From contig DIWU01000032.1 in the NCBI GenBank assembly GCA_002428525.1, forward strand, positions 1,269-65,268: a stretch of 64,000 nt of DNA, in the 5' to 3' direction. The notes beneath the pieces are model-generated. The model ran no database searches and had not been told where the DNA came from. It was given only the letters and a program-made list of their open reading frames with translations. The number at the start of each line of letters is the position of its first letter. Position 1 is the first letter of the stretch. This DNA is from a bacterium UBP14_UBA6098 (lineage in GTDB: Bacteria > UBP14 > UBA6098). Shown here piece after piece: positions 15,282 through 32,371 of the stretch. Made by a program: the position numbers and the translations under genes.

Positions 15282-16238
15282 ATGAGTGTAAAAGTAATAT
15301 CTGAGCTTCTTCAGGCCGAATCGGCCGCAATCGCAAACCTCGTCGGAAAAATCGAGGGGCAGATAGTAAGCGCCGCAGACCTCTGCAGTTCATGCTCCGG
15401 TCGCATAATCGTAATGGGCCTCGGCAAAAGCGGCCTCGTCGGCCGCAAGATCGCCTCAACTCTGGCCTCGACTGGAACATCGAGTGTCTTTATCCACGCC
15501 GCTGAGGCGCTCCACGGCGATTTGGGCATGATAACCGATCGCGACTGCGCAATACTTATATCGAAAAGCGGTTGCACGCCCGAAACACTGATGCTGATCC
15601 CGCCGTTAAAGCGTTTGGGCGTGAAAATAATTGTCATCACCGGGAATCCGGCCTCGCCGGCGGCCAAAGAGGCCGATGTAGTCCTCGATATAGGCGTTTC
15701 AACCGAGGCCGAACCGATAGGCGTCGTCCCGACGACCTCGACTACTGTGACTATGGCCATCGGCGATGCGCTCGCTATCGCGCTTATGACGCGAAAGGGT
15801 TTCTCGAAGTCCGATTTCGCCCAGATACATCCGGCCGGCAACCTCGGAAGCCTTTTGAAGCGAGTCTCAGAGGTGATGCACACTGGGAATGCAATTCCAC
15901 AGGTGCCGCCATCGGCCTCGACCATGGAGGGGATATTAGAAATGAGCGAAAAGCGCCTCGGGCATGTTTTAGTGGTCAAAGAAGGGAAACTGCTCGGGAT
16001 CTTCTCCGACGGCGACCTGCGAAGAGCGCTTCAAGCGCATCCTAACGAGGACATCACCTCGCTTTCGATAACCGCCCTCGCCACAGCCGGACCTAAAACA
16101 ATCGACGCCGGTGCTCTCGTCGAGGAGGCGGTCCGGACAATGGAGACGAAGAAGATCACAGCATTGCCCGTGCTTTCGGACGGTCTTCTCGTCGGAATAG
16201 TGCATCTTCATGATATTTTATCTGCGAGGGCCGTTTAG
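15282..16238 (+). CDS. kdsD: KpsF/GutQ-family arabinose-5-phosphate isomerase (SIS + tandem CBS)
   Basis: The SIS domain (GLGKSGLVGRKIASTLASTG) is followed by two CBS domains. Confidence 0.85.
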   Translation: MSVKVISELLQAESAAIANLVGKIEGQIVSAADLCSSCSGRIIVMGLGKSGLVGRKIASTLASTGTSSVFIHAAEALHGDLGMITDRDCAILISKSGCTPETLMLIPPLKRLGVKIIVITGNPASPAAKEADVVLDIGVSTEAEPIGVVPTTSTTVTMAIGDALAIALMTRKGFSKSDFAQIHPAGNLGSLLKRVSEVMHTGNAIPQVPPSASTMEGILEMSEKRLGHVLVVKEGKLLGIFSDGDLRRALQAHPNEDITSLSITALATAGPKTIDAGALVEEAVRTMETKKITALPVLSDGLLVGIVHLHDILSARAV

Positions 16239-16241
16239 GCG

Positions 16242-17690
16242 ATGTCCCTCAAGCGCGATCTGATACGCGATACGGCCCTTTACGGCCTCGGCGATATTCT
16301 CACAAAGGCTATCGCTTTCCTGCTTATACCCCTCTATACGAACTCCCTCGTGCCGGAGGAATACGGTATCTACCAGTTGGTCGTCCTGTATGTCACAGTC
16401 GCGATGGTTTTCTCTCTGAGCGGTATGAATGTCGCATTGTTCAAGCATTTTGTCGTCACACCGGAGGAGGGGAAGCGGCGAGAGCTTTTTACGATTACTG
16501 TTTTGTGGGTGTTTTTAAGCTCGGCGCTGATAATCGGTCTTTCGATGCTTCTTTCCGGGCCGCTTTCGGAGCTTGTGGCCGGCAATACCGGCCGAAGAGA
16601 TATCGTCGGGCTCGCGGCGCTCAGTTCCGGCCTCGACACGCTTTTACTCGTGCTCCTTTTGATCTTTCGCATGGAAAAACGCCCGATCGGCTATATAACC
16701 TTTTCCCTGATAAAGATTGTCGTTATTTTGGCCGGCAATTATTTTCTGGTTTGGAAGATGGGCATGGGCGTCGTCGGGATATTGATCGCGGGGATAATCG
16801 CGAATCTTGTTATCCTGATTCCGCTTTTGATCAAGGTCGGTAACTACTTCATCTGGCCGGTTTCGAGAAAGCTATTCATTGAGCTCCTTGTATGGGGAAT
16901 CCCGTTCATCCCTTCATCGCTGTCTTCGGTGATCTTGACGCTTTCCGACAGGCTCGTTCTTCGTTATATGGCGGGTTTCGACTCGGCGGGGATTTATTCG
17001 GTGGGCTATAAGATCGGCGGTGCGGTTTTACTTCTATATACAGCTTTCAGGTTCGCGTGGGGGCCGTATATGTTCGAGCTTGCGAAGGATATCGAAACCG
17101 CCCGAAAGACCTACCCGAGGGTTTTAAATGTGCTTATTGCACTGCTCGGGTTGGCGGCGCTCGGGCTGGTCGGCTTTTCGAGCGAGATCTTCCGGTTTTT
17201 CGTTGGAGAGCTTTATTATTCGGCGCGTGCGGTGCTGATCCCAATATCGCTGTCCGTTCTCTTCGACGCCTCCTCGCTGTTCTTCGGCGCGGCACTCCAG
17301 ACGCGCGATAGGACAATCTATATCCCCGTGGTCACCGGTCTTGCGGCTGTCTCGAATATCCTGCTGAATATACTGCTCATCCCGAAATACGGTTTCATGG
17401 GCGCGGCTTGGGCGACACTCGCTTCCTATATCGCCTTGGCCTATATGAACTTCCGTGTTGCGAACCCCTTCATGCCGGTGAAATACGATTGGCTTAAGCT
17501 GACCTCGATAGTCGCCTCGGTGTCCGGCGGGATGGCGCTTATGTGGTTCGTGGAATCCTTTGTTTTAAGGATAGTATTATTTATTGGAGTCAGTGTGATA
17601 GTTTTCTTTATCTCCTGTGAAAACCCTAAAAACTTTGTTAATAGTATTTACCGCTCGTCGAATATGTATCATCGGCGATGCTCTAAATAA
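16242..17690 (+). CDS. Wzx-like polysaccharide flippase (MOP/PST family), core-GC copy
   Basis: The protein is 482 aa with about 12-14 predicted TM helices and a typical PST-family N-terminus. Confidence 0.7.
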   Translation: MSLKRDLIRDTALYGLGDILTKAIAFLLIPLYTNSLVPEEYGIYQLVVLYVTVAMVFSLSGMNVALFKHFVVTPEEGKRRELFTITVLWVFLSSALIIGLSMLLSGPLSELVAGNTGRRDIVGLAALSSGLDTLLLVLLLIFRMEKRPIGYITFSLIKIVVILAGNYFLVWKMGMGVVGILIAGIIANLVILIPLLIKVGNYFIWPVSRKLFIELLVWGIPFIPSSLSSVILTLSDRLVLRYMAGFDSAGIYSVGYKIGGAVLLLYTAFRFAWGPYMFELAKDIETARKTYPRVLNVLIALLGLAALGLVGFSSEIFRFFVGELYYSARAVLIPISLSVLFDASSLFFGAALQTRDRTIYIPVVTGLAAVSNILLNILLIPKYGFMGAAWATLASYIALAYMNFRVANPFMPVKYDWLKLTSIVASVSGGMALMWFVESFVLRIVLFIGVSVIVFFISCENPKNFVNSIYRSSNMYHRRCSK

Positions 17691-17725
17691 CAATATTCAG
17701 ACTCAAATACAGCAGACTTGAACAA

Positions 17726-19222
17726 ATGATGAATGACAACAACTACATTCAACAAAATGGGCAATTATCCCGATCTGTAGTTTCTGGTGGTATATGGATT
17801 ACATTATCTAAGATATTACAACATAGTTTAAATTTCATTAGGACAATAACACTTGCTCGTTTGCTCTCTCCAGACAACTTCGGCCTTTTCGGCATAGCAA
17901 TGCTCGCGCTTACAGCAATAGATAAATTTTCTTTCACTGGTTTCGATCAAGCACTGATTCAGAAAAGAGAGAATATTGAGCCTTATCTCGATTCTGCATG
18001 GACTATTCAGGTTATTCGCGGTTTAATCTTAGGATTATTATTGTTTTGCACAGCACCTCTTGTCGCGAAATTCTTCCATGAACCGCAGGTTACATTACTA
18101 TTAAAAGTTCTGGGCTTTTCAATTTTCATTGGAGGTTTCAGAAACATAGGTATCGTGTTTTTCCATAAGAATATCCAGTTCAATAGAATGTTTATATATG
18201 AATTAAGTGGTACAATAACTGATTTTGGAGTCGCGCTAACTGCCGCCATTATATTGCGTAACGCATGGGCGCTAGTCTTTGGTTTCACGGCAAGGAATAT
18301 TGTCCAAACAATTGTTTCGTATGTCATCCATCAATATAAACCGCGCTTTAAAATTAATTGGAAGCATACAAAGGACCTCTTGAGTTTCGGCCAATGGATT
18401 TGGGGTAGCACGATACTGATATTTCTGCTAACTCAAGGAGACGATATTTTAGTTGGAAAGATACTTGGAACAACAGCGTTAGGGTTTTACCAAATGGGAT
18501 ATAAAATCTCGAACCTTCCAGCTACAGAGATTACTCATGCCCTTTCGCAAGTGATTTTCCCAGCCTATTCAAGACTGCAGGACAATATTCCAAAGCTTAG
18601 AGCCGCTTTCTTGAGAGTTTTCCAAATGATGACATTTATCACCTTTCCAATTGCGATACTGATATTCGTCCTCGCGCCAGATTTTACTATTGTTTTTCTC
18701 GGCGAAAAATGGATGCCTATGGTGCCGGTGATGAAAACACTATGCTATTTTGCTGTTATTAGGACGATTAATTCTGTGTTTTCAGCTGTGTTAACTGCAT
18801 TGGGCAAGCCGCGTATTTCAACGATAGGATCGTTTTTCCAATTGATATTATTCGTAATAATTGTGTATCCATTGATAATAAACTTCGGACTAGTTGGTGT
18901 AGCTTATGCCACTATTATCCCGAATGCTTTCTTCCTGATATATATCGGCATCAGGCTACTGAAAGAAATTGACACACAGTTTTCAAAGCTGTTGAGTGTT
19001 ATCCTTCCATCGATTGCGGGATGTCTATCAACTTATTTATCTGTAACCTTTGTGAATAATACGTTTTCTTTTAATGCCTCTGTGATCTCCATTATTTCAC
19101 TCGCTATTTTAGGGGGTGGAGTATATATTGTTGTTGTTTATTTGTCGGATATTCTAACAAAGGGAAGTCTTACTAATAGTGTTAAACAGATTCTTTTATA
19201 TAAACGAGCGGATTTATTATGA
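17726..19222 (+). CDS. Wzx-like polysaccharide flippase (MOP/PST family), low-GC copy
   Basis: The protein is 498 aa, multi-TM and AT-rich. Its stop overlaps the next start (ATGA). Confidence 0.7.
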   Translation: MMNDNNYIQQNGQLSRSVVSGGIWITLSKILQHSLNFIRTITLARLLSPDNFGLFGIAMLALTAIDKFSFTGFDQALIQKRENIEPYLDSAWTIQVIRGLILGLLLFCTAPLVAKFFHEPQVTLLLKVLGFSIFIGGFRNIGIVFFHKNIQFNRMFIYELSGTITDFGVALTAAIILRNAWALVFGFTARNIVQTIVSYVIHQYKPRFKINWKHTKDLLSFGQWIWGSTILIFLLTQGDDILVGKILGTTALGFYQMGYKISNLPATEITHALSQVIFPAYSRLQDNIPKLRAAFLRVFQMMTFITFPIAILIFVLAPDFTIVFLGEKWMPMVPVMKTLCYFAVIRTINSVFSAVLTALGKPRISTIGSFFQLILFVIIVYPLIINFGLVGVAYATIIPNAFFLIYIGIRLLKEIDTQFSKLLSVILPSIAGCLSTYLSVTFVNNTFSFNASVISIISLAILGGGVYIVVVYLSDILTKGSLTNSVKQILLYKRADLL

Positions 19223-19902
19223 GCGATGAACTAAATAAATTCAACGAAGCATATACCGGTAACAGGCCGGATGTCCAACAATTGATTCCCGATAATGTTC
19301 AGAGGGTTCTGGATTGTGGTTGTAGTGTAGGCGCTCTCGGGGAAGAGATCGCAAAAAGGCCTAATAAACCCGAGGTCTGCGGGATAGAATTAGACGAACA
19401 AACTGCACAAATCGCTAAGAGTAAGTTAGATCGTGTCATTATCGGAAATCTCGACACGATCGATTTCGCGGAACACTTCCAAAAGGGATACTTCGATTGT
19501 ATAATATTCTCCGATGTGCTCGAACATACACAAGACCCATGGGGTATTCTAAAGAATGCAATGCCTTTTCTAAACAACGATGGTTTCGTGATAATCAGTA
19601 TTCCAAATATTCGTCACTACACCACGATATGCAATCTAATCTTTCGCGATTATTGGCCATATAGAGAAAGAGGTCTTCACGATAAAACACACCTAAGGTT
19701 CTTCACGCTTAAAAGTATTAAAGAACTATGTGAAAATGCCGGCCTCCAAATCCAAAGATTGGAACGCAATTATCGGATCTACGAAAGGCCACATTATAGG
19801 AACAGGTTCGCGAAATACTTAGCCATCCCGTTCTTGCGCGGTTTTCTTGTTTTCCAGTATCTCATTGTCGCAAAAAAAAGAGGGCCGCATGGCGGGGAAT
19901 AG
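19219..19902 (+). CDS. class I SAM-dependent methyltransferase
   Basis: Motif I is VLDCGCSVG and motif II is DCIIFSDVLEH. Confidence 0.75.
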   Translation: MSDELNKFNEAYTGNRPDVQQLIPDNVQRVLDCGCSVGALGEEIAKRPNKPEVCGIELDEQTAQIAKSKLDRVIIGNLDTIDFAEHFQKGYFDCIIFSDVLEHTQDPWGILKNAMPFLNNDGFVIISIPNIRHYTTICNLIFRDYWPYRERGLHDKTHLRFFTLKSIKELCENAGLQIQRLERNYRIYERPHYRNRFAKYLAIPFLRGFLVFQYLIVAKKRGPHGGE

Positions 19903-20956
19903 AAAAACTACAATGAGACTTAAAATATCCTCATACTTGAGGAGAATAGCATCTAAAGAAAAAAATTCATTTTCGGAGAAGCTCGCACTTTTTGCACGAG
20001 CTATTTATTTGAAGCTAAAAAGTGTGTATAAAGCTATCATGCTGTCAATGTCGAAAAGTAACTCAAAAATGGTCTCAAGGCTTTACCTGAAGCAAAGAAG
20101 TTTCATGAGAGCCAAGCTTGAAGGGCGCTATTCTTTCGTCACAATCGACGAACTCGTTCTGTGGACGATGGATTGGATTAAAACCAACAAAATCGACCAC
20201 GACATTATTGTCGGAATACCGCGGAGCGGATTATTAGTCGCTAATATACTGGCATTAAAACTTGGGAAACCTTTATCTACGCCGGAGCTTTTCGTGCAAG
20301 GTTCCCTCTGGAATAGCAAGTATATTGAATTAACCGAAAACATTAAGAGTGTTCTATTGGTCGATGACACAGTTAGTTCGGGTAAAACTCTGGATGATAA
20401 TCTGCAAGTTATACTCCCCTATTGCGAAAAACGAGGAATTTCGATTACCAAAGCGGCTCTTATCGTTACCGACGAAGCGCTTTCTTCAGTGGATGCTTTC
20501 TATAAGATCCTTCCTCAACCGAGGCTATTCGAATGGAACTTGATGCACTCCAAAAAGGGGATTATTTGTTCGGATATGGACGGCGTTATATGTGAAAATT
20601 GTCCTCCCGGCGTGGATGCCGATGAAGACCGGTATCTCGAGTGGCTCGATAATGCAAAGCCATATATGATACCTGCTTTTGAAATCGATGTTATTGTTTC
20701 GGGGCGTCTGGAAAAGTATCGGGAGCAAACAGAACATTGGCTCAAAAAATATAAAGTCCGATATAAAGAGCTTTGCCTTTGGGATTTGGAATCCAAAGAA
20801 CTAAGATTAGGCAATTATGTTAAACATAAAATCGATGTAATCTTGAAGACAAAGCCGGATATGGTATTCGAAAGCGAGCATAACCAAGCTGAAGAGATAT
20901 GGAAAGCTACTCATGTCACTACAATATGCACTGACGATATGATTATCTTCTCATAA
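19889..20956 (+). CDS. fusion of an N-terminal type I phosphoribosyltransferase domain and a C-terminal HAD-like phosphatase domain
   Basis: The PRPP-binding motif is VLLVDDTVSSGKTL (PRTase). HAD motif I is SDMDGV, with a downstream S/T and Lys. The start is uncertain (19889 or 19913) and the tool ORF is over-extended. Confidence 0.6.
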   Translation: MAGNRKTTMRLKISSYLRRIASKEKNSFSEKLALFARAIYLKLKSVYKAIMLSMSKSNSKMVSRLYLKQRSFMRAKLEGRYSFVTIDELVLWTMDWIKTNKIDHDIIVGIPRSGLLVANILALKLGKPLSTPELFVQGSLWNSKYIELTENIKSVLLVDDTVSSGKTLDDNLQVILPYCEKRGISITKAALIVTDEALSSVDAFYKILPQPRLFEWNLMHSKKGIICSDMDGVICENCPPGVDADEDRYLEWLDNAKPYMIPAFEIDVIVSGRLEKYREQTEHWLKKYKVRYKELCLWDLESKELRLGNYVKHKIDVILKTKPDMVFESEHNQAEEIWKATHVTTICTDDMIIFS

Positions 20957-21171
20957 TACATTCAAAGAAGAGGATATATTGCAAATTCGTCTGACAAGCT
21001 TGATAATCCATGGGTTAATAATCGACAAAGAACACTTCGAGAAATAGAGTGAGTATTCTTTGAGAATCTTCAGAAACATAAATAAACTTGGCCAAAAACC
21101 CCATAATCAGCTTAAGTTCTGTAGATATCCATACGACATCTCTTCCATAATCAAAGAGGTGTATATTTGAT

Positions 21172-22293
21172 ATGAAGATACTCTTTACCACAGGAAGGAT
21201 ACATCAAATCGGAGGCGGTGCTGAAAGATCGGCGACGACTCTCATAAGAAAACTATCTGAAAAGCATCATGTATGTGTGTTCAATATAGTATTTGAACCA
21301 CAGCCTGAAAAGAATCCAGGGCTTATAGGAAGCAACATCGAGATAATCGACTGGAATTTCCCCATAAAGACAAAGAAAACTCTTAGAATGCCATATCACG
21401 CCAGATTACTCTCCTGCGATATTCAAGCACAGAGGGAACTTAACAAGATAGCGAGAAACTTCCAGCCGGAAATTGTAATAGCTCAGAAACCTCCTGTGGT
21501 ATATGAAGATCCTATTCCGAGCAATAAAGCACCAATCATCACATTTGTTAGAGATACGGAGTATTTAGACCCATTCAACATAGAACATAAGTGTTTTATT
21601 CATTACAACACCCTATTTATGAAATTAAGGCAAAAAAGGATGCTAAAATTATTGAAAAAAAGTAACTTGCTTATTGTCGCAAGTGATTTTATGCGGGAGA
21701 AGCTCAATGGATTCGGCTTGTCCGCTGAGGTCGTTCCACCCTTTATTGAATTTGAAAAATATGCCTCTAACCCTGCGGGTGATAGAGATTCCATTACAAT
21801 GATAGCCGCAAATCTTGCAAAACATAAAGGGGTAGATATCTTTTTGCGTATTGCTGAGAAGTGTCCCGATTTGAAGTTTCTGTTGGTAGGGCGTTTGCCA
21901 GAAGAGCATGGAGATTTGCCTTCCAATGTTGTCCATTTGAGATGGACAGACGATATCAAGTCGATACTTGCGAAAACGATGCTTCTTCTTGTTCCGTCCC
22001 GCTGGGAAGAACCTTTTGGTAGATTGCCGGTAGAGGCGGGAGTTAACGGCATTCCCTCTATTGCAAGCAACAGAGGAGGGCTGGTCGAAGCCGTTGGAGA
22101 AGGAGGTATATTGATTCAAAATTACGAGGATATCGACCTTTGGGTTGAGGCAATTACAAGTGTTCTCAATAATTCTGCTATATATAACTCTCTGTCAAAA
22201 AACGCTATAGAGAATGCTAATCGTTTTGAATTTTGCTATTCTTATGCTAAATTTACATCTTTGGTAAAAGAGTATTTTGGGATTGAGCTGTGA
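21172..22293 (+). CDS. GT4-family glycosyltransferase (GT-B, retaining)
   Basis: The EX7E motif is EPFGRLPVEAGVNGIPSIAS. The gene is AT-rich. Confidence 0.8.
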   Translation: MKILFTTGRIHQIGGGAERSATTLIRKLSEKHHVCVFNIVFEPQPEKNPGLIGSNIEIIDWNFPIKTKKTLRMPYHARLLSCDIQAQRELNKIARNFQPEIVIAQKPPVVYEDPIPSNKAPIITFVRDTEYLDPFNIEHKCFIHYNTLFMKLRQKRMLKLLKKSNLLIVASDFMREKLNGFGLSAEVVPPFIEFEKYASNPAGDRDSITMIAANLAKHKGVDIFLRIAEKCPDLKFLLVGRLPEEHGDLPSNVVHLRWTDDIKSILAKTMLLLVPSRWEEPFGRLPVEAGVNGIPSIASNRGGLVEAVGEGGILIQNYEDIDLWVEAITSVLNNSAIYNSLSKNAIENANRFEFCYSYAKFTSLVKEYFGIEL

Positions 22294-22384
22294 AATCGGC
22301 CGCAGTTTATTCCCTTTGGTTTTTGTCGTTTATTAAGTCCATTAAAACAGTAATGAATACATCTTGTATTTCAAGGCGGAGTTC

Positions 22385-23494
22385 ATGAGAATAGCAATCG
22401 ACATTTCTACATTGTGTAGATCGCGGACTGGCGTAGCACTATTCACATATTATACATTGCGTGAGCTTACACTTATTGATAATTCCAATACGTACTTTCT
22501 CTATGTTAATAAGGCCGTTTCCCTCGATTTCCCTCTGCCGCCGAACTTCTTCATCCGCCCGACGCAGATCCCCTTGCCGCAGTTCCAGCTGTGGTTTCAC
22601 ATCGGCCTGCCGATGTTTTTGCGAAGTGATAAAATCGACATCTTCCACGGGACGAATTTCCTCATCCCGCCTTTCCCCGGGTGCAAGACGGTCTCGACGG
22701 TTCACGACCTTTCGAGCCTTGTTATGCCATCACAACATAAGACTTTTCATCGAATCTCTCACGGCCTTTTCCTCAAAAACTCTATGCGCAGAGCGGATGC
22801 GATTATCGCAGTCAGCGAGTTCACGCGGAGCGAGATTTCCCGCCTCTTTCCCGAAATGTCTGATAAGACTGTCGTTATTCACGAGGCAGTATCGCCGGAA
22901 TTTCGGGCAATAGAAGATGTCGCCCTATTGCGCAATATCAGCGAAAAACACGGCCTCCCCGAACGCTTCATTCTCTTCGTCGGCACGCTGGAGCCGAGGA
23001 AAAACATCGAGGGCCTCATGCGAGCGTTCGCTGGAATCAAGGGCCAAATTCCCCATAAACTCGTTATCGTCGGCGGAAGGGGTTGGAAGTTCTCCGGAAT
23101 ATTCGATCTGGTGAAAAGGCTCGATATCGAGGATGATATAATTTTCACCGATTATGTCCTCGCAGGGGATCTCCCGGTGATATACAACCTCGCTGATATT
23201 TTCTGCTATCCATCTTTTTACGAGGGCTTCGGACTGCCGGTGCTCGAGGCGATGGCCTGTGGAACTCCGGTGTTGACCTCTAATGTCAGCTCCTTGCCGG
23301 AGGTCGCCGGGAATGCGGCCCTACTATTCGACCCCCGTTCACCGGAGGATATCGCGGAGAGGATAATTCAGCTGGCCAATAACGAGACCCTCCGCGCGGA
23401 GCTTTCCAAAGCGGGCCTTCGACGCGCGTCCGAATTCTCTTGGGCGGATACCGCGAAAAAAACACTCGAGACCTACCGCCGCGCCCTCGAATAA
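22385..23494 (+). CDS. GT4-family glycosyltransferase
   Basis: EGFGLPVLEAMACGTPVLTS is present. The start is ATG 22385 after AAGGCGGAG. The first ~40 codons are AT-rich and the rest is GC-rich. Confidence 0.8.
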   Translation: MRIAIDISTLCRSRTGVALFTYYTLRELTLIDNSNTYFLYVNKAVSLDFPLPPNFFIRPTQIPLPQFQLWFHIGLPMFLRSDKIDIFHGTNFLIPPFPGCKTVSTVHDLSSLVMPSQHKTFHRISHGLFLKNSMRRADAIIAVSEFTRSEISRLFPEMSDKTVVIHEAVSPEFRAIEDVALLRNISEKHGLPERFILFVGTLEPRKNIEGLMRAFAGIKGQIPHKLVIVGGRGWKFSGIFDLVKRLDIEDDIIFTDYVLAGDLPVIYNLADIFCYPSFYEGFGLPVLEAMACGTPVLTSNVSSLPEVAGNAALLFDPRSPEDIAERIIQLANNETLRAELSKAGLRRASEFSWADTAKKTLETYRRALE

Positions 23495-23576
23495 AGACCC
23501 TCTTTTCCCACTTGTTAATAAAGCCGAATTTTATATATTACTATAGAAACTTTCTATCGAGCTATTTGGAGGAACG

Positions 23577-24587
23577 ATGAAAAAAGCCCTTATAACCGGC
23601 ATTACCGGACAGGACGGCTCCTATCTCGCCGATTTTCTTCTCGAAAAGAGATACAGCGTTTACGGCATGATCCGGCGTAATTCCACGGAAAACCTCGGGC
23701 GCATCGAGCATATTAGAGATAGAATACAGCTTGTTCAAGCGGATCTTCTCGACCAGATGTCGATAATGAAACTTATTCGCGAGATACAGCCCGACGAAAT
23801 ATATAATCTTGCGGCTCAGTCCTTCGTCCCGACATCGTGGAGCCAGCCGCTTTACACCGGAGAGGCTACCGCCCTCGGCGTCACGCGCATGCTCGAGGCT
23901 ATGCGTTATGAAAAAAGCGACAGCAAATTCTACCAAGCCTCGTCTTCCGAGATGTTCGGCAAGGTGCTCGAAATGCCCCAAAGCGAGAACACACCGTTCT
24001 ATCCGCGAAGCCCCTACGGCGTCGCCAAGGTTTACGGCCATTTTATTACTGTGAACTATCGCGAAAGCTACGACCTCTTCGCCGCTTCGGGGATTCTTTT
24101 CAACCACGAATCGCCGCGCCGCGGCAAGGAGTTCGTCACGCGCAAGATCACAAACGCGGCGGCAAGAATCAAGTTCGGCCTGCAGGATATTCTCGAGCTG
24201 GGAAACCTCGACGCCAAGCGCGACTGGGGTTTCGCCGGCGATTATGTCCGAATGATCTGGCTTATGCTCCAGCAGGACAGCCCCGACGATTATGTCATCG
24301 GAACCGGTGTCGCCCATTCGGTGCGCGAATTCGCCACACACGCCTTCGAGACCGCCGGCTTCGATATCGCGTGGGAAGGAACCGGTATCGACGAGGTCGG
24401 GTTCGACCGAAAGACCGGCAAGCCCTTGGTGAGGTTGTCCGAGGAGTTCTTCCGCCCGGCCGATGTCAATCACCTTTTGGCGAACCCCTCCAAGGCGAAG
24501 GCCAAACTCGGATGGGAACCGACGGTGAGCTTCGAGGAACTCGTTCGTAAGATGACCGAGGCCGACATCGAAAGCTATCGGAGGTAG
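23577..24587 (+). CDS. gmd: GDP-mannose 4,6-dehydratase
   Basis: [19 protein letters not shown] is present, together with the YGxxK catalytic region. Confidence 0.9.
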
Positions 24588-24590
24588 GGT

Positions 24591-25538
24591 TTGCGTGTTT
24601 TTATAACAGGCATCGAGGGATTCGTCGGCCGACACCTTGTCATGGAGTTGGTCAAAGCCGGCCACGAGGTTTCGGGTTTATACTTCGACAAGATGGATCT
24701 CGATGAAATCGAAGCTTTGGCTGAGAGGCTTTATCGCGGCGATCTTCGCGATAGTGTTTCGTTGAACCAAATCCTCGATTCCGCCCGACCCGATGCGATC
24801 GTCCACCTCGCGGCGATCAGCTTCGTCCCGGCCGCGTCGAGCGATCCGCGAACCGCTTGGGATATCAACCTTGGCGGGACTTTAAACATACTGGAGTGGA
24901 TCAGGGTGGCAAAGCCCGATACACACCTGCTTTTCGTCTCAACCTCCGAGGTTTACGGCCGTTCGGATGGCGGCGACTTGCCCTTCACCGAGGAAACCCC
25001 GCTCAGGCCGGCGAATATGTATTCCGCAACCAAGGCCTCCGCGGATATGGCCGCGGATCAGTATCGAAGCCTCTTCAGTTTGCGAATCGCAACCCTGCGC
25101 CCGGCCAATCATATCGGCCCCGGCCAGTCGGAGAATTTCGTTGTATCGAGTTTTGCCAGACAGGTCGCGGAGGCCGCCTTGGGACTCGGCGATGGAGTTA
25201 TTCGCGTCGGCAACCTCTCCGCGATGCGCGATTTTCTCGATGTCCGCGATGTCGTTCGGGCATATAGGCTCGTTCTCGAACAGCAAATCACCGGCATCTT
25301 CAACCTCGGCTCCGGCAAAGCGGAGCGAATCTCAGATATTTTGGATAGCTTGGTCGAGATCGCCGGTGCGAGGATCTCGGTCGTGGTCGATAAAGAAAGG
25401 CTTCGTCCCGTCGATGTCCCGATTATCTTCATCAGCCGTGAAAAACTTTCGGCCGAATCGGGCTGGACTCCCGAGATTCCGCTGATAAAAACCCTCGAGG
25501 ATACTCTCAAATGCTGGAAAGACAAGCTCCGCAAATAA
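24591..25538 (+). CDS. rmd: GDP-4-dehydro-6-deoxy-D-mannose reductase (GDP-D-rhamnose forming), Rmd-like SDR
   Basis: It has GxxGxxG, and VHLAA...NLGGTLN and RPANHIGPGQSENFVVSSFARQ...RDFLDVRDV closely resemble Pseudomonas Rmd. It sits directly downstream of gmd. Confidence 0.8.
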   Translation: MRVFITGIEGFVGRHLVMELVKAGHEVSGLYFDKMDLDEIEALAERLYRGDLRDSVSLNQILDSARPDAIVHLAAISFVPAASSDPRTAWDINLGGTLNILEWIRVAKPDTHLLFVSTSEVYGRSDGGDLPFTEETPLRPANMYSATKASADMAADQYRSLFSLRIATLRPANHIGPGQSENFVVSSFARQVAEAALGLGDGVIRVGNLSAMRDFLDVRDVVRAYRLVLEQQITGIFNLGSGKAERISDILDSLVEIAGARISVVVDKERLRPVDVPIIFISREKLSAESGWTPEIPLIKTLEDTLKCWKDKLRK

Positions 25539-26701
25539 TTACCGCTCGCGGAACAAAACCGAGAGTCGCGATAGTTCACGATTTTCTCAACCAATCCGGC
25601 GGAGCCGAGGAGGTGCTCCGCGAGATTAAGGGCCTTTTCCCCGAAGCGCCGATTTTCACCCTCGCTTACGACAAGAAGCGCGTCCCGTCGGACTTCAACG
25701 AATGGAAGATCGAACCTTTGGGCTGGTCGAAGCGGCTTCCTAAAATGCACAAATGGTATAAGTATTACATGCCGCTTTACCCCACGATGATCGAGCAGAT
25801 GAACCTTCAGGACTTCGACCTCGTGATCTCGAGTAGCTATCTCGTCGCCCATGGCGTTCTGACGCGAAGCGAGACGGCTCATCTGTCCTATTGCTACACT
25901 CCAATGCGTCAGGCATGGGAGCTGTATTTCGACTACAAACATGATTACACGAAAACCGGCTTCAAACCGAAACGCGACCTATTCAAATTCTTCTATCCGA
26001 TTGTCTTCAACTATGTTCGAATGTGGGACCGCCTCGCCTCCGAAAGGGTTGATTTTTATTCATGCATCTCGGAAACGACAAGGCGAAGGATCGATAAATT
26101 CTACTCGAGAACCGCGGATATTATCTATCCGCCTGTTCACACAGGCAAGTTCAAAGTCAGGCCGAAGAATGAAATTGGCGAATTTTACCTTTGTCTTTCG
26201 CGTCTCGTGCCTTATAAGCGGATCGATATTGCGGTCGAGGCCTTCAGGAAACTCGATCTTCCGCTGATAATCGCGGGTGATGGCGTTCAAATCAACTATT
26301 TGAAGAAGATTGCCGGCCCGAAAACCAAGTTCTTGGGATGGATCGACGAGGCAGAGAAAATCGAGCTTTTAGAAAGTTGCAGGGCCTTAGTTTTCCCCGG
26401 TGTCGAGGATTTCGGGATCGTTCCGGTCGAGGCTCAGGCCGCCGGTCGGCCGGTAATCGCGCTCGGCGAGGGCGGCGCGACCGAAACTGTTATTCCCGAA
26501 CAGACCGGTGTTTTCTTCGAACACCAGTCGGCCGAGTCTTTGCTCGATGCTGTCGAGAGGTTTCAAAGGCTCGACTTCGATCCGGCGATCATCGCAAACT
26601 CGGCTAAGCGTTTCGATACCGCGGTATTCCGCGAAAATTTCAAGCTGTGGGTGGAAAAGAGATTCTCGGAATTCTCAAGAAAAATTCAGGAGGGGAAATG
26701 A
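25511..26701 (+). CDS. GT4-family glycosyltransferase (WbpX/Y/Z-like, possible D-rhamnosyltransferase)
   Basis: It has VAIVHDFL near the N-terminus and VEDFGIVPVEAQAAGRPVIA (EX7E). It lies downstream of gmd-rmd. Confidence 0.7.
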   Translation: MLERQAPQIITARGTKPRVAIVHDFLNQSGGAEEVLREIKGLFPEAPIFTLAYDKKRVPSDFNEWKIEPLGWSKRLPKMHKWYKYYMPLYPTMIEQMNLQDFDLVISSSYLVAHGVLTRSETAHLSYCYTPMRQAWELYFDYKHDYTKTGFKPKRDLFKFFYPIVFNYVRMWDRLASERVDFYSCISETTRRRIDKFYSRTADIIYPPVHTGKFKVRPKNEIGEFYLCLSRLVPYKRIDIAVEAFRKLDLPLIIAGDGVQINYLKKIAGPKTKFLGWIDEAEKIELLESCRALVFPGVEDFGIVPVEAQAAGRPVIALGEGGATETVIPEQTGVFFEHQSAESLLDAVERFQRLDFDPAIIANSAKRFDTAVFRENFKLWVEKRFSEFSRKIQEGK

Positions 26702-30508: not shown

Positions 30509-32371
30509 ATGATGAAAAAAATAATCTTACTGCTTGTAATACCCATCTTTAGCCTATTTGCGTGGGAGGAGATCGGCCCGATAGGCTTCTCCGCCAATCG
30601 TGTTCTCCCCGACCCAACTCGGCCGGACTCGATCTATGCAATAATCGGCGGAGGCGCTTCGGAAAGGCGTCTCGAACTCGTGCGAACACCGGACCGAGGC
30701 GCTAGCTGGGATTCCCTCGGCGAGTACGAAAGCGCCGTCCTTCATCCGGCGACCGCAGAGACCGTTTTCGCCTCTCTCGGCATCGGCTCTTTCTCCGACG
30801 GAGTTTGGCGAAGCAACGATTTCGGGCGAACCTTCGAGTTCCCGCCGCCGGACTGGCTTTATCTCGCAAAAGGTGCGATTTATGATCCCCGAGACCCCTC
30901 GAGGCTCTTCGCTTGGGGCTCTACGATCGACCGATCGACCGACGGCGGGAGTAGCTGGGAGGTTGTCTATTCGACAATCGGCACACCGGACATGTATTTC
31001 ACCGGTGTTGCAGTTGACCCGGTTTATAACCACCGCGTCTATGCTTGGGACGGCATGGGCCGCCTCTTTCACTCGCTCGACTACGGCTCCTCATGGCGCC
31101 TTCTTTTCACCTTCACCGAGCATATGTCGCCCAACGAGATAGCGGTTTCCCCTCGGGATTCTTGCATCCTTTACGCCGCTTGTTGGTGCGGCTTCGCCTT
31201 CAGCCGAAACTGCGGTTTTGATTGGGAATATGTTGACCTCGATCCGCAACCCTCGAATTGTATCTTCGTTCAGGGCGGAGCAACAGAGCATATATATATC
31301 GGCGGGGCTTACGGCGCGTTGGCCTCGGAGGACGAGGGCATGTCATGGGCGCCGCTCGGCGACGATATACCCTGCGCGGTTTTCGATATTGCCCAAGGCC
31401 CGGAACCATCCGGGGGACAGTATTTATACGTAGGCACCGAGCGCTTTGGCGCAATGCGTATGCCGATCGGGCCTTCCTCAGAGGGGCCTATCGTCGGGCC
31501 ATACAGCCCGCTAAACGGCGCATGGGTCTCTCTCGATAGTTTCGCTATCTTCGTAGGTTTGCGCGATCCCGATGGCATCGACGAGGCAAGCCTGATTTTT
31601 TCGGTTAATGACGTAGAATTCGATTGCTCTAATCCTCAGCTTTCCTTGGCAGATTCTGGCATGTTATTTATAAGCGAATATACTGATGGCGAGACCCTGC
31701 ACCTCGCCCTCGAACGGGCAAACGACTGCTTGGGTAATCCCTCGGACATGCTCCCCCTCGAATGGACGATCTATATCGACCGCTCACCCGCGGCAATGCT
31801 TTATCGCCATCCGGATTCGGCCGATGTCGTGATTGGCTCGGATATTACTGCAAAATTCTATATCCGCGATCTCGGCGCAGGAATCGACACTTCAACCTTT
31901 TACGCCGTTTTCGGCTCCGATACCGTCAGATTGTCCTCCATGGCGGCCATCTTCGATGCGGACACGTTCATTATACACCTCCCCACCGCTGGAATTTCCC
32001 CCGCACCCGGCGAGACCGTGTCGGTGGAGGTCGGAATCGCCGACAAAGCAACATTTGCGGGGCCAAACTCGATGCTTCGCAGATGGTTTTTCAGCGTCAG
32101 CCCGACAGGCCTTTCCGAGGCCAGTTTGCCGTCCGGTCTTGAGCTCTCTGTTCATCCCAATCCATTCAACTCCGCTCTAACAGTCGAGACCAATCTACCC
32201 GTAAAGATAGAAATCATCGATATTTCCGGCCGATCCGTCGCAAAACTCGATTACCCCGGCGGTGTTGCACATTGGCAACCGGATGTTTCTATTCGTTCCG
32301 GGCTATATCTTCTCCTCATCAGGACTGAGAGGGGAGAGGTTTTCACGAGAAAGATATTCTTATTGAAGTAA
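30509..32371 (+). CDS. secreted BNR/Asp-box repeat protein with T9SS C-terminal domain
   Basis: The signal peptide is followed by multiple SxDxGxSW motifs (STDGGSSWE, SLDYGSSWR). The C-terminus reads HPNPFNSALTVE...IIDISGRSV...SGLYLLLI...K. Confidence 0.65.
   Translation: MMKKIILLLVIPIFSLFAWEEIGPIGFSANRVLPDPTRPDSIYAIIGGGASERRLELVRTPDRGASWDSLGEYESAVLHPATAETVFASLGIGSFSDGVWRSNDFGRTFEFPPPDWLYLAKGAIYDPRDPSRLFAWGSTIDRSTDGGSSWEVVYSTIGTPDMYFTGVAVDPVYNHRVYAWDGMGRLFHSLDYGSSWRLLFTFTEHMSPNEIAVSPRDSCILYAACWCGFAFSRNCGFDWEYVDLDPQPSNCIFVQGGATEHIYIGGAYGALASEDEGMSWAPLGDDIPCAVFDIAQGPEPSGGQYLYVGTERFGAMRMPIGPSSEGPIVGPYSPLNGAWVSLDSFAIFVGLRDPDGIDEASLIFSVNDVEFDCSNPQLSLADSGMLFISEYTDGETLHLALERANDCLGNPSDMLPLEWTIYIDRSPAAMLYRHPDSADVVIGSDITAKFYIRDLGAGIDTSTFYAVFGSDTVRLSSMAAIFDADTFIIHLPTAGISPAPGETVSVEVGIADKATFAGPNSMLRRWFFSVSPTGLSEASLPSGLELSVHPNPFNSALTVETNLPVKIEIIDISGRSVAKLDYPGGVAHWQPDVSIRSGLYLLLIRTERGEVFTRKIFLLK

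Follow-up and report, generated by a model that had tools for sequence, protein, structure and literature searches.

Introduction

A glycan locus of an uncultured bacterium raises the question of what a phosphoribosyltransferase (PRT) joined to a HAD-type phosphatase does among flippase and glycosyltransferase genes. Does this PRT-HAD protein install ribofuranose (Ribf) on a surface glycan, and to which kind of enzyme does it belong? We examined its gene within a stretch of DNA of 64,000 nucleotides, hereafter the window (Table 1).

A PRT-HAD gene in a low-GC glycan cassette

The initial annotation had described a PRTase-HAD fusion lying between a flippase/methyltransferase and GT4 glycosyltransferases. 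We confirmed a real ORF with both domains, and Pfam assigns the neighbouring genes as described. The start codon is preceded by GAGGG 4 nt upstream, and an identical protein is encoded on 11 metagenome contigs, where the metagenome gene callers' start is the same ATG. The composition profile reveals a low-GC island that coincides with a four-gene cassette encoding Wzx, the methyltransferase, PRT-HAD and a GT4, flanked on both sides by parts of the locus with the GC content of the host. No meaningful direct or inverted repeats were found around the cassette. Parts of the same arrangement recur elsewhere. A Wzx gene also neighbours PRT-HAD homologues in loci L008, L011, L001 and L055 and in Bosea, a methyltransferase gene adjoins the homologue in loci L005, L008, L010, L011, L065 and L087, and a GT4 gene takes the same place relative to it in loci L008, L010 and L011. 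Found again in other phyla, the four-gene cassette appears to be mobile between phyla.

Table 1. Features of the glycan locus and of the PRT-HAD protein (positions in the window)
Feature	Position	Strand	Basis and remarks
KpsF/KdsD-like SIS+CBS protein	15282-16238	+	Pfam; upstream host-GC part of the locus (15282-17690)
Second Wzx-like protein	16242-17690	+	Pfam; upstream host-GC part
Low-GC island	17600-22400	.	GC 0.35-0.43 versus 0.50-0.60 in the flanks; composition profile
Wzx-type flippase, first cassette gene	17726-19222	+	Polysacc_synt_3, 284 bits
Methyltransf_23 methyltransferase	19219-19902	+	Pfam; 14-nt overlap with the PRT-HAD start
PRT-HAD gene, WbaM-family candidate ribofuranosyltransferase	19889-20956	+	355 aa plus stop; ORF, translation, homologues
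N-terminal basic three-helix extension	19889-20128	+	Residues 1-80; AF2 model helices 2-21, 28-56, 60-78
Type I phosphoribosyltransferase domain	20129-20539	+	Residues 81-217
PPi-binding loop GIPRSG	20213-20230	+	G109-G114; conservation; aligns with SRGG loop of E. coli Gpt
PRPP-binding loop VLLVDDTVSSGKTL	20351-20392	+	Residues 155-168; aligns with DDLVDTGGT loop of Gpt
Capless (C0-type) HAD phosphatase domain	20558-20953	+	Residues 224-355
HAD motif I DMDGV	20573-20587	+	Residues 229-233; nucleophile D229, acid/base D231
HAD motif II SGR	20699-20707	+	S271, R273; conservation; aligns with SGR of Pnkp1
HAD motif III Lys	20828-20830	+	K314; K in 80/82, others gaps
HAD motif IV Glu-Ser	20870-20875	+	E328-S329; E, S in 80/82, others gaps
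GT4 glycosyltransferase, last cassette gene	21172-22293	+	Pfam
GT4	22364-23494	+	Pfam; downstream host-GC part of the locus (22364-26701)
GDP-mannose 4,6-dehydratase	23577-24587	+	Pfam; downstream host-GC part
NAD-dependent epimerase/reductase	24591-25538	+	Pfam; downstream host-GC part
GT4	25511-26701	+	Pfam; downstream host-GC part

The protein has three parts, namely a basic N-terminal extension of three helices, a type I PRT domain and a capless HAD domain. The AF2 model depicts a soluble alpha/beta protein without a membrane-spanning segment. The extension carries a net charge of +17 (mean +10.5 in 32 homologues), while the rest of the protein is close to 0. It belongs to a 'long form' only and is absent from the E. 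coli, Flavobacterium and rhizobial members. Its role may be docking at the membrane or near the acceptor.

The phosphoribosyltransferase domain

Conservation was counted over 82 family members with 33-56% identity. A translation check placed the PRPP-loop string of the initial annotation, as well as its DMDGV string, at the residues listed in Table 1. In the PPi loop, G109, P111, R112 and G114 are invariant. In the PRPP loop, D160 is invariant, D159 is D or E, and almost no variation is seen at S/T164 and G165. The window protein scores 29.7 against PF00156 (Pfam cut-off 26.3), and it has the five-stranded parallel alpha/beta core of type I PRTs, with a PPi loop following the first strand. Judged by its sequence, the domain is a member of the type I phosphoribosyltransferase superfamily, and it is predicted to turn over PRPP.

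By both structure and sequence, the best neighbours of this domain are XGPRT, HGXPRT and OPRT. E. coli Gpt, H. pylori XGHPRT (7KL6) and S. solfataricus HGXPRT (4Z1O) share with it the PPi loop (SRGG / PRSG), the PRPP loop and a C-terminal F-x-W motif. However, those are stand-alone salvage enzymes, whereas the window PRT is HAD-fused and encoded in a glycan locus. The stand-alone form of about 150-180 residues was not encountered in the family, in which a HAD domain always follows the PRT (profile coverage 66-338). The position aligned with Gpt D92, the catalytic Asp of the D-T-G triplet in the PRPP loop of 6-oxopurine PRTs, is S163 in the window protein and varies in the family (A in 37, S in 13, G in 9, N in 9 and D in 4 of the 82). 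The hood alignments disagree on the equivalent of the purine-stacking aromatic Gpt W134, which is P211 by HMMER and L213 by hhalign; near this uncertain position, R212, F214 and W216 are conserved across the family. Because the hood retains these aromatic and basic residues, a small planar acceptor would be compatible with the sequence alone.

Best homology to salvage PRTases had been named beforehand as a finding that would refute a ribofuranose function. Such homology, to XGPRT and HGXPRT, is literally what we found, but the ribofuranose reading stands, because the identity to salvage PRTs is only 15-22%, the family has not kept their catalytic Asp, and the genomic evidence points overwhelmingly to glycans.

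The phosphatase domain

The HAD half of the protein gave no significant HAD match in Pfam and nothing in NCBIfam, so this domain was recognised by structure alone: HAD motifs I-IV lie on a Rossmannoid core. Loss of the catalytic Asp, also named beforehand as refuting a ribofuranose function, is not seen. D229 and V233 of motif I are kept in 81 of the 82 members, and D231 and G232 are invariant. The downstream S/T and Lys of the initial annotation correspond to S271 (T or S in 81/82) and K314, and R273 beside the former is invariant. Motif IV is Glu-Ser versus the usual Asp-Asp, and it aligns with the DD of Pnkp1.

The closest relative of the HAD domain is the phosphatase of T4 polynucleotide kinase, with which it shares the capless core. 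Searches with HAD_PNKP / PNK3P gave no significant match, PF25109 matched one of 27 members at E 0.055, and phmmer to Pnkp1 gave E 0.006-0.025. The T4 Pnkp 3'-phosphatase and bacterial Pnkp1 (HAD subfamily III, capless) have the same DxDGT/V, SGR and R...K pattern, and an active site open to a sugar phosphate at a polymer end, as we propose for the window protein. They differ from it in overall sequence (16-17% identity), in motif IV (DD versus ES) and in their kinase and nucleic-acid-repair context; no kinase domain or repair context was found beside the PRT-HAD genes. HAD enzymes of the capless class tend toward large substrates.

Homology to WbaM and WbsZ of E. coli and Shigella

In the E. 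coli O183 cluster, the window protein matches the sole PRT gene (wbaM) with 33% identity (E 2e-42, residues 82-355), and in the O105 cluster it matches the sole PRT gene there with 34% identity (E 1e-47). The latter is WbsZ in S. boydii, and the names of sequence clusters in the family include 'WbsZ' (Q6QQW5) and 'Putative phosphoribosyltransferase' (G3XGB6). Only nine E. coli serogroups (O105, O183, O5, O20, O54, O114, O153, O178 and O185) have D-Ribf, and the O183 and O105 O antigens contain plain beta-D-Ribf (PMC7685785). A passage of that review reports the role of wbaM in beta-D-Ribf transfer as confirmed (PMC7685785). In the O105 and O183 clusters, the PRT gene alone is not a gene for a Leloir glycosyltransferase, wzx, wzy or a precursor pathway.

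At blastn sensitivity, the window gene has no match in E. coli genomes; a Vibrio homologue served as a stepping stone to the E. coli genes. A WbaM-type gene was then detected by blastn in 13 of 5,426 complete E. coli genomes, and the three places inspected are all galF-gnd intervals that hold an O105 or O183 cluster.

In WbaM (S. boydii type 10 / E. coli O183) and in WbsZ (S. boydii type 11 / O105), as in the window protein, the type I PRT comes first and the capless HAD second, and all three keep GIPRSG, LLVDDS, PR-x-FEWN, DxDGVxC, (S/T)xRLEKYR, the Lys and the ES pair. Their loci are also alike, being Wzx/Wzy-type glycan clusters with the gene beside wzx and among glycosyltransferases. From the homology of both domains and the retained catalytic motifs, we conclude that the window protein is a member of the WbaM/WbsZ family. 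It differs from WbaM and WbsZ in an extra 80-residue basic helical N-terminus and in the lack of their C-terminal tail of about 45 residues. The window gene, unlike wbaM and wbsZ, is part of an apparently mobile low-GC cassette that includes Wzx, methyltransferase and GT4 genes of its own. The identity of just 33% and the added N-terminal extension weigh against a direct transfer of the WbaM function to the window protein.

A literature search found no biochemical characterisation of any PRT-HAD member of the WbaM/WbsZ type and no description of this architecture or its distribution. The window protein is an addition to a known, biochemically uncharacterised kind.

Distribution, fusions and gene neighbourhoods

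We found 415 close homologues with the same PRT-HAD architecture, and the family comprises 1,241 representative clusters (50% identity, E<=1e-30); the architecture is therefore not due to chance. At least 535 species of bacteria and archaea are represented. Source annotations call the homologues "phosphoribosyltransferase family protein", "hypothetical", or an adenine/guanine, orotate or hypoxanthine PRT.

Fusions tie the module to glycan synthesis. It is fused to GT2, GT4, GT8, GT28, RgpF or TOD1-like domains in 14 of 20 long relatives scanned, and to an FkbM methyltransferase in four of the 20 and also in the homologue of locus L038. These fusions mirror the multi-enzyme polymerases Bcs3 and Cj1432 (PMC10299916, PMC12096443), and PRT-HAD/GT multi-enzyme fusions could serve the glyco-engineering of Ribf-containing antigens.

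Of 74 loci, taken from different species, at least 55 have recognised glycan genes within five genes of the PRT-HAD homologue. A common operon in Flavobacteriia has the order PGT-OEP-Wzz-Wzx-Wzy-PRT/HAD-membrane GT2-GT4-GT4, and archaeal copies are found near AglB. The S. fredii cassette contains a PGT, Wzx, an unassigned polytopic membrane protein of 496 aa and a GMC oxidoreductase, with no Leloir glycosyltransferase. No usable structure of a ribose-containing glycan was found in the literature for the Sinorhizobium or Flavobacterium carriers. A minority of homologues (loci L007, L015, L018 and L039, and R. phaseoli) have no evident glycan genes nearby; the R. phaseoli gene adjoins a caspase-family gene and T6SS genes.

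Comparison with known ribofuranose systems

All characterised pairs of a PRPP-dependent transferase and a phosphatase in glycan loci install a pentofuranose (PMC11127046, PMC10299916, PMC11294581, PMC12096443). We compared the window protein with gPRT-PRP (K. pneumoniae O4 ORF5, T. composti 7SHG, Salmonella STM0726) and CriT-CrpP (H. influenzae Bcs3, C. jejuni Cj1432). Their chemistry is the one proposed here, in which PRPP donates Ribf-5-P to a hydroxyl of the glycan and a HAD-superfamily phosphatase then takes off the 5-phosphate. Like the PRT-HAD family, they are fused to or found beside Leloir glycosyltransferases, and the catalytic core of CriT is a five-stranded PRTase-like alpha/beta fold (PMC10299916).

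In other respects they are different. When the PDB was searched with a profile, none of these proteins was matched at E<=10. Their order is phosphatase then transferase, the reverse of that in the window protein. The PRP/CrpP phosphatase bears an alpha-helical cap some 100 residues long, whereas the window HAD is capless, and the gPRT/CriT fold, with a PRPP pocket flanked by helical bundles, is not recognisable by sequence or structure in the window protein. The glycans of K. pneumoniae O4/O7 and Salmonella T1 and the Hib capsule are exported by ABC transporters, in contrast to the mostly Wzx/Wzy loci of the PRT-HAD family. We therefore rejected membership of the window protein in gPRT-PRP/CriT-CrpP, to which it is related at the superfamily level only. 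Of the ribofuranose-installing module proposed earlier, the PRPP transferase/phosphatase acting on a surface glycan is supported by WbaM/WbsZ, the fusions and the loci, while the suggested kinship with the gPRT-phosphatases of Klebsiella, Citrobacter and Thermobacillus is not borne out. Searches in which the PRP domain serves as marker would overlook the WbaM-type family.

Proposed function and alternatives

The product of the window gene is probably a WbaM/WbsZ-type ribofuranosyltransferase that works in two steps in the cytoplasm, a reading favoured because of the homology to WbaM/WbsZ, the fusions to glycosyltransferases and the glycan-locus context. In the first step, three conserved elements would bind Mg-PRPP, namely the PRPP loop with D159, D160, S164 and G165, the PPi loop (G109-I-P-R112-S-G114), and D202. 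An undecaprenyl-diphosphate-linked glycan intermediate would attack C1 through one of its hydroxyls and displace pyrophosphate with inversion, giving a beta-linked ribofuranose-5-phosphate. In the second step, the adjoining capless HAD would strip off the 5-phosphate, with D229 as the nucleophile and D231 as the acid/base, S271, R273 and K314 holding the phosphate, and E328 holding Mg2+. The open Pnkp-like active site would suit a polymer-bound sugar phosphate. In this long-form member, the basic N-terminal helices probably keep the enzyme at the membrane, and the neighbouring methyltransferase, GT4 and Wzx may modify, extend and flip the unit. The predicted glycan of this uncultured bacterium contains ribofuranose and is probably methylated and deoxyhexose-containing. 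Several points count against this reading. To our knowledge, the canonical type I PRTases characterised so far form N-glycosidic bonds, and for PF00156 an O-glycosidic product would be out of the ordinary. The solved structures closest to the PRT domain are purine-salvage PRTs, HAD motif IV departs from Asp-Asp, and a minority of homologues have no evident glycan genes nearby.

The same transfer might lead to something other than plain Ribf, in that the installed phosphoribose is finally O-methylated, oxidised, epimerised (for example, to arabinofuranose) or left partly phosphorylated. We consider this unlikely. A Methyltransf_23 gene adjoins the module in at least seven loci and FkbM is fused to it in at least five proteins, the two methyltransferase families being unrelated; the S. 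fredii copy adjoins the GMC oxidoreductase gene, and mycobacterial DPR is epimerised to DPA after analogous steps (PMC11127046). Nevertheless, the product in E. coli O183 and O105 is plain beta-D-Ribf (PMC7685785), and the methyltransferase could target any other sugar of the unit.

It seems decidedly unlikely that the acceptor is undecaprenyl phosphate rather than the glycan. The protein would then be a soluble analogue of PPPRS-PRP, and its product, Und-P-ribofuranose, would be flipped and used outside the cytoplasm. The UbiA-type systems DPPRS/Rv3807c (M. tuberculosis) and ORF15 PPPRS-PRP (C. youngae) work in this manner, with PRPP as the donor and subsequent 5-dephosphorylation, and bring a pentofuranose to a surface glycan (PMC11127046). 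The window has two tandem Wzx-like genes, one of them inside the cassette, and the strongly basic helical N-terminus suggests membrane contact. The composition of the S. fredii cassette and DUF2206 membrane proteins near two homologues point in the same direction. However, the UbiA-type PRTs are integral membrane proteins of nine helices whose acceptor is a lipid phosphate and which depend on a flippase and a GT-C enzyme, whereas the window protein is soluble. No GT-C-like protein was found in the window locus, where the 943-aa ORF encodes a secreted protein, and neither a GT-C-type transferase nor a GtrA-like flippase is among the genes annotated in the O183 and O105 clusters. The N-terminal helices are missing from the short forms, E. 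coli WbaM among them, and in each of the 14 transferase fusions the partner is a soluble cytoplasmic Leloir glycosyltransferase domain, never a membrane domain.

A nucleotide or nucleoside enzyme is very improbable. The PRT would make a 5'-monophosphate from a free base and PRPP, the HAD would be a 5'-nucleotidase, and the glycan context would be incidental or point to a small-molecule precursor. The nearest relatives of the PRT domain, the salvage names given to homologues, the conserved aromatics of the hood and the few homologues in non-glycan contexts agree with this. Against it stand the low identity to those relatives, the variable D92 position (mostly A, S, G or N), the capless Pnkp-type HAD, the covalent joining of the module to glycosyltransferases, and the location of the genes in O-antigen/EPS operons between wzy, wzx and glycosyltransferase genes. 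In addition, wbaM is described in the above review passage as needed for Ribf addition (PMC7685785).

Also highly improbable is a non-catalytic sensor of PRPP or nucleotides in the style of PyrR, PurR or GfcR, whose HAD would act as a protein/lipid phosphatase regulating export (for example, on a Wzc-type kinase), or a PRTase defence effector: the flavobacterial operons carry Wzz/GNVR tyrosine-kinase-type genes, weak matches exist to PRTase-CE (E 0.0037) and PADLOC PRTase_III-A (22 bits), and there are the R. phaseoli neighbours, but the residues binding PRPP, PPi and metal are invariant or nearly so, as for a catalyst, no BY-kinase is found in the cassettes of the window, Omnitrophota and archaea or in the E. 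coli O-antigen clusters, and the defence-family scores lie far under any membership threshold. PADLOC called no system among the neighbours, with no match for the transferase and flippase and only generic methyltransferase matches for the methyltransferase. We rejected the defence-system reading, for which the PADLOC result was a generic PRTase match.

Beyond the two-step ribofuranosyltransferase itself, we are evenly divided over a broader proposal. The WbaM-type module would be an evolutionarily independent second solution for ribofuranose, in which a PF00156 PRTase of the nucleotide-salvage type, retooled to form an O-glycosidic bond to a glycan, is combined with a capless HAD of the polynucleotide-phosphatase type in place of the capped PRP. 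It would be the main Ribf route in Wzx/Wzy glycans across Bacteria and in archaeal AglB-linked loci, and the cassette methyltransferase would cap an exposed hydroxyl of the ribose. If the chemistry holds, a canonical type I PRTase that makes O-glycosides would extend what this fold is known to do. Through domains other than those now taken as canonical for it, the WbaM-type family ties the 2005 genetic observation on wbaM to the modern PRPP-then-phosphatase mechanism.

The 943-aa ORF mentioned above (26647-29478) was tried as a candidate GT-C membrane transferase and ruled out; its product is secreted and has a T9SS-like C-terminal tail. The window host encodes proteins with T9SS-type C-terminal sorting domains.

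The PRT-HAD fusion protein and its locus

The initial annotation had described a fusion of a type I phosphoribosyltransferase (PRT; donor PRPP) with a HAD phosphatase domain, encoded between a flippase/methyltransferase pair on one side and GT4 glycosyltransferases on the other. Its reading frame, on the plus strand, and its neighbours stand, and so do the two motifs that it quotes: we located the PRPP loop (VLLVDDTVSSGKTL) at residues 155–168 and DMDGV at residues 229–233. GAGGG lies four bases 5′ of the ATG; a longer frame could be read from a TTG at 19847 but need not be assumed. The same ATG is also picked by metagenome gene callers, and the identical protein is present on 11 contigs from public samples.

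Features of the PRT-HAD locus (window positions in nucleotides; residues refer to the AlphaFold model)
Feature	Position	Remark
KpsF-like SIS+CBS protein and second Wzx-like gene	15282-17690	upstream end of the wider locus
Second Wzx-like gene by itself (upstream member of the Wzx tandem)	16242-17690	at host GC
Low-GC island (17.6-22.4 kb)	17600-22400	
Wzx-type flippase	17726-19222	within the low-GC island
Methyltransf_23 methyltransferase	19219-19902	overlaps PRT-HAD start by 14 nt
PRT-HAD ORF	19889-20956 (+)	ATG 19889 to stop 20956; 355 residues
Three N-terminal helices	residues 2-78	
Alpha/beta PRT core	residues 82-214	
Second alpha/beta domain	residues 226-354	
GT4 glycosyltransferase	21172-22293	
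GT4 glycosyltransferase	22364-23494	
367-aa ORF	23562-24665 (-)	antisense to GDP-mannose 4,6-dehydratase
GDP-mannose 4,6-dehydratase, epimerase/reductase, third GT4	to 26701	downstream end of the wider locus
943-aa ORF	26647-29478	directly 3′ of the last GT4
BNR/sortilin-like protein	30509-32371	next-but-one ORF after the 943-aa ORF

The PRT domain is the one part of the window protein with a Pfam match (PF00156, residues 101–173; 29.7 bits, cut-off 26.3), and the C-terminal half was undetected by the Pfam HAD models both here and in 27 homologues. The AlphaFold model, built on an alignment of 32 full-length homologues, has a pLDDT of 92.7 and a pTM of 0.84. Net charge is concentrated at the N-terminus, where the first 80 residues have +17 (homologue mean +10.5, n = 32) and the remainder of the protein about zero. 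The PRT domain is a canonical type I domain, whose best 50 Foldseek matches in the PDB are all XGPRT, HGXPRT or OPRT. Modelled alone (pLDDT 94.5), the C-terminal domain adopts a HAD fold of about 130 residues, which is capless because only a single helix separates motifs I and II.

Residue conservation

We compared 82 non-redundant members, down to 33% identity, drawn from 185,579 species genomes. Invariant or nearly so in the PRT domain are D105, G109, P111, R112, S113, G114, L156, D159 (D/E), D160, S/T164, G165, D202, P211, F214, W216 and N217. The corresponding HAD residues are D229, D231, G232, V233, C235, T/S271, R273, L274, E275, R278, T281, W284, L285, R306, K314, E328, S329 and C347. 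Judged from these residues, both domains appear to be catalytically competent. Motif IV of the HAD domain is an invariant Glu-Ser instead of the usual Asp-Asp. Two of the conserved HAD residues are cysteines, C235 (20591-20593), six residues past the nucleophile, and C347 (20927-20929); C238 is conserved in long forms only. The two cysteines may serve in a disulfide, at a metal site or in catalysis.

Relation to WbaM, WbsZ and known ribofuranosyltransferases

D-ribofuranose (Ribf) is known from capsules, pneumococcal 19B and 19C among them, as well as from O antigens. In E. coli it occurs in nine serogroups, O5, O20, O54, O105, O114, O153, O178, O183 and O185 (PMC7685785). According to this O-antigen review, which reports the work second-hand, the role of wbaM in Ribf transfer was confirmed in 2005, and wbaM comes next after seven shared genes that lie 3′ of galF (PMC7685785). 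Starting at the DNA level from a Vibrio hangzhouensis homologue, which bridged the distance to E. coli, we detected PRT-HAD genes in 11 complete genomes of that species; both of the two inspected carry the PRT gene in an O105 cluster (galF-rfbBDAC-GT-wzy(O105)-GT-GT-GT-PRT-wzx(O105)-gnd). The O105 gene as query yielded two further E. coli genomes, and the one inspected has an O183 cluster (galF-GT2-GT4-wzy(O169/O183)-GT4-GT-manC-manB-PRT-wzx(O183)-gnd; PRT protein WP_072130354.1). There the PRT gene occupies the exact position given for wbaM, and the cluster contains no other PRT gene. Aligned over residues 82–355, the window protein shares 34% identity with the O105 protein (E 1e-47) and 33% with its O183 counterpart (E 2e-42), both of which keep every motif. 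The 90%-identity clusters of these two proteins include Shigella boydii sequences, and the O105-type cluster is named WbsZ. At blastn sensitivity, 13 of 5,426 complete E. coli genomes have a PRT-HAD gene, all of them of the O105 or O183 type. A truncated O183-type protein of 232 aa from Shigella boydii genomes (P0272, in the cluster of L098:9935-10918) might, speculatively, be an inactivated wbaM of the ribose-lacking type 6 O antigen.

The prototypes of the characterised ribofuranosyltransferase-phosphatases (gPRT-PRP and CriT-CrpP) are K. pneumoniae O4 ORF5, T. composti 7SHG, Salmonella STM0726, Bcs3 CrpP-CriT and Cj1432, and in every one a capped HAD phosphatase is N-terminal to the gPRT/CriT domain (PMC11127046, PMC10299916, PMC11294581, PMC12096443). 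This family, which the initial annotation had chosen as comparator, proved to be the wrong one: a PRT-HAD family profile searched against the PDB at E ≤ 10 found neither 7SHG nor 8A0C, and the domain order of the window protein is reversed, with the transferase preceding the phosphatase. The same profile found purine PRTs at 2e-7. The window protein resembles the gPRT-PRP enzymes in logic, not in family membership. Among those enzymes, STM0726 carrying the D14A mutation traps a product that still bears its 5-phosphate.

Distribution, neighbourhoods and domain fusions

The PRT-HAD family is present in at least 535 species genomes and comprises at least 415 homologue clusters at 90% identity; at 50% identity there are 2,938 representatives at E ≤ 1e-3, including 1,241 at E ≤ 1e-30. 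Long forms with basic N-terminal helices are found in Omnitrophota, Dehalococcoidia, Woeseiaceae, Methanolobus and Methanomassiliicoccales. Short forms are found in Flavobacterium, Polaribacter, Algibacter, Maribellus, Draconibacterium, Paludibacter, Vibrio, Lachnospiraceae, rhizobia, haloarchaea and E. coli. All ORFs of 83 non-redundant loci were grouped into clusters, of which the most frequent neighbours were annotated.

Commonest gene clusters within five genes of PRT-HAD
Neighbour	Loci (of 83)	Directly adjacent
GT4 (cluster a)	45	8
GT4 (cluster b)	41	19
Membrane GT2	36	29
Wzy_C protein	33	17
Wzx-like protein	27	0
Wzz/GNVR	26	0
Second GT2	21	1
Outer-membrane efflux (OEP-family) protein	19	0
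Bac_transf initiating transferase	16	0
Acyltransferase	14	0

A recognised glycan gene lies near PRT-HAD in at least 55 of the 74 loci having enough flank, a lower bound because singleton clusters were left unannotated. Flavobacteriia have a fixed operon, PGT-OEP-Wzz-Wzx-Wzy-PRT/HAD-membrane GT2-(acyltransferase)-GT4-GT4-GT2. The Methanolobus copy adjoins the same kind of methyltransferase as in the window, with AglB a few genes away. On a Sinorhizobium fredii SMH12 megaplasmid (L093 7122-14371), a minimal cassette flanked by transposases contains only a PGT, a GMC-type oxidoreductase, PRT-HAD, a convergent Wzx and a 496-aa polytopic membrane protein. No Leloir glycosyltransferase was found in this cassette, and PRT/HAD is therefore the sole candidate for second-sugar addition. 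The adjoining oxidoreductase recalls, by analogy, the DprE1-type ribose oxidation of the arabinofuranose pathway.

A minority of the family lacks evident glycan genes; loci L007, L015, L018 and L039 contain metabolic genes, a restriction-type helicase, a 2-hydroxyacid dehydrogenase or haloarchaeal regulators. On Rhizobium phaseoli plasmid pRphaR650d (L091 9818-13290), a homologue of 432 aa, which retains all motifs of both domains and is extended at its C-terminus by about 150 residues, is encoded directly 3′ of a caspase-family protein and near T6SS genes, a context not obviously glycan-related. The family may be functionally non-uniform.

Long proteins are numerous among the representatives, and we scanned 20 of them with Pfam. 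Glycosyltransferase partners are GT8 (P0206), GT2 (P0227, P0219, P0226), GT4 (P0220, P0203), GT4 with DUF6270 (P0224), GT4 with GT2 (P0223), GT4 with a TupA-type ATP-grasp (P0212), GT4 with an FkbM methyltransferase (P0257) and GT28-C (P0240). Others are TOD1-like with RgpF (P0253, P0222), TOD1-like alone (P0250) and FkbM alone (P0221, P0232 and, in addition to these 20, a 708-aa Lachnospiraceae protein); Pfam found no partner domain in P0191 and P0237. These fusions place PRT-HAD in series with glycosyltransferases within one polypeptide, an architecture mirroring the multi-enzyme polymerases Bcs3 and Cj1432. In P0157 (628 aa) and P0166 (640 aa), the partner is a second PRT-HAD module in tandem, as if for adding two ribose residues or polymerising. 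The 708-aa FkbM fusion (L038 6858-14211, Lachnospiraceae bacterium MC2017) lies between several LicD-family proteins, a setting that hints at a phospho-sugar or teichoic-acid-like polymer in this Gram-positive organism.

Predicted function

The window protein is probably a PRPP-using Ribf-5-P transferase and 5-phosphatase acting on a lipid-linked glycan. Its type I PRT domain has intact PRPP, PPi and metal ligands; its capless, Pnkp-like HAD domain has an intact nucleophile, acid/base, and phosphate and metal ligands; its context is glycan assembly, and it is homologous to WbaM and WbsZ. The ribofuranose-installing transferase and phosphatase first proposed for this gene thus gains support from this homology, the glycan loci, the glycosyltransferase fusions and the retained motifs. 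The PRT domain would transfer ribose-5-phosphate from PRPP to a hydroxyl of a lipid-linked repeat unit with inversion, giving a beta-Ribf-5-P product. The HAD domain would then take off the 5-phosphate; as in T4 Pnkp, its site is open, which suits substrates attached to a polymer. The basic helices at the N-terminus would hold the long-form enzyme at the membrane, and the cassette methyltransferase, GT4 and Wzx would act on the product afterwards.

That the same chemistry serves a glycan whose final sugar is modified is unlikely, and a three-component-like route with Und-P as acceptor is somewhat less probable still. Nucleotide or nucleoside metabolism, the business of the salvage enzymes that the PRT domain matches in fold, is very improbable. 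In 6-oxopurine PRTs, an Asp (D92 in E. coli Gpt) acts as the catalytic base. Gpt D92 aligns with a variable position, S163 in the window protein and mostly A/S/G/N across the family. As to base contacts in the hood, the stacking Trp of Gpt falls opposite P211 or L213, two alignments disagreeing, and the hood residues R212, F214 and W216 are kept across the family. A loop carries a further aromatic residue, W/Y141. A regulatory or defence role is equally improbable.

For the favoured ribofuranosylation, it is already known genetically that Ribf in a Wzx/Wzy O antigen depends on a WbaM-type phosphoribosyltransferase, and other families provide established cases of the PRPP-then-phosphatase logic. 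The window gene is a divergent new member with an extra N-terminal extension, from an uncultured lineage. In the accessible literature we found no description of the build from a salvage-type PRTase and a Pnkp-type capless HAD, of the family's unrelatedness to gPRT-PRP, of its very wide spread including archaea or of its many glycosyltransferase and methyltransferase fusions, all of which Kelly et al. 2022 may cover.

A low-GC cassette and other features of the locus

GC content falls from 0.50–0.60 to 0.35–0.43 exactly across the island, which spans four genes: Wzx, the Methyltransf_23 methyltransferase, PRT-HAD and the first GT4. All four recur in identical order at L008 and L011 (an Omnitrophota genome) and three of them at L010 (another Omnitrophota genome), and the gene order is seen again in unrelated phyla. 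No repeats flanking the cassette were found. It looks like a four-gene glycan-modification cassette that was horizontally acquired as a unit.

The tandem Wzx-type genes suggest two different lipid-linked substrates or redundant import. The 367-aa antisense ORF has no Pfam match and is almost certainly a spurious shadow ORF. The 943-aa ORF, likewise lacking a Pfam match, begins with a signal-like segment and ends in a tail similar to a T9SS sorting domain, and the BNR/sortilin-like protein has a Por_Secre_tail; these two ORFs point to a Bacteroidota/FCB-group host.
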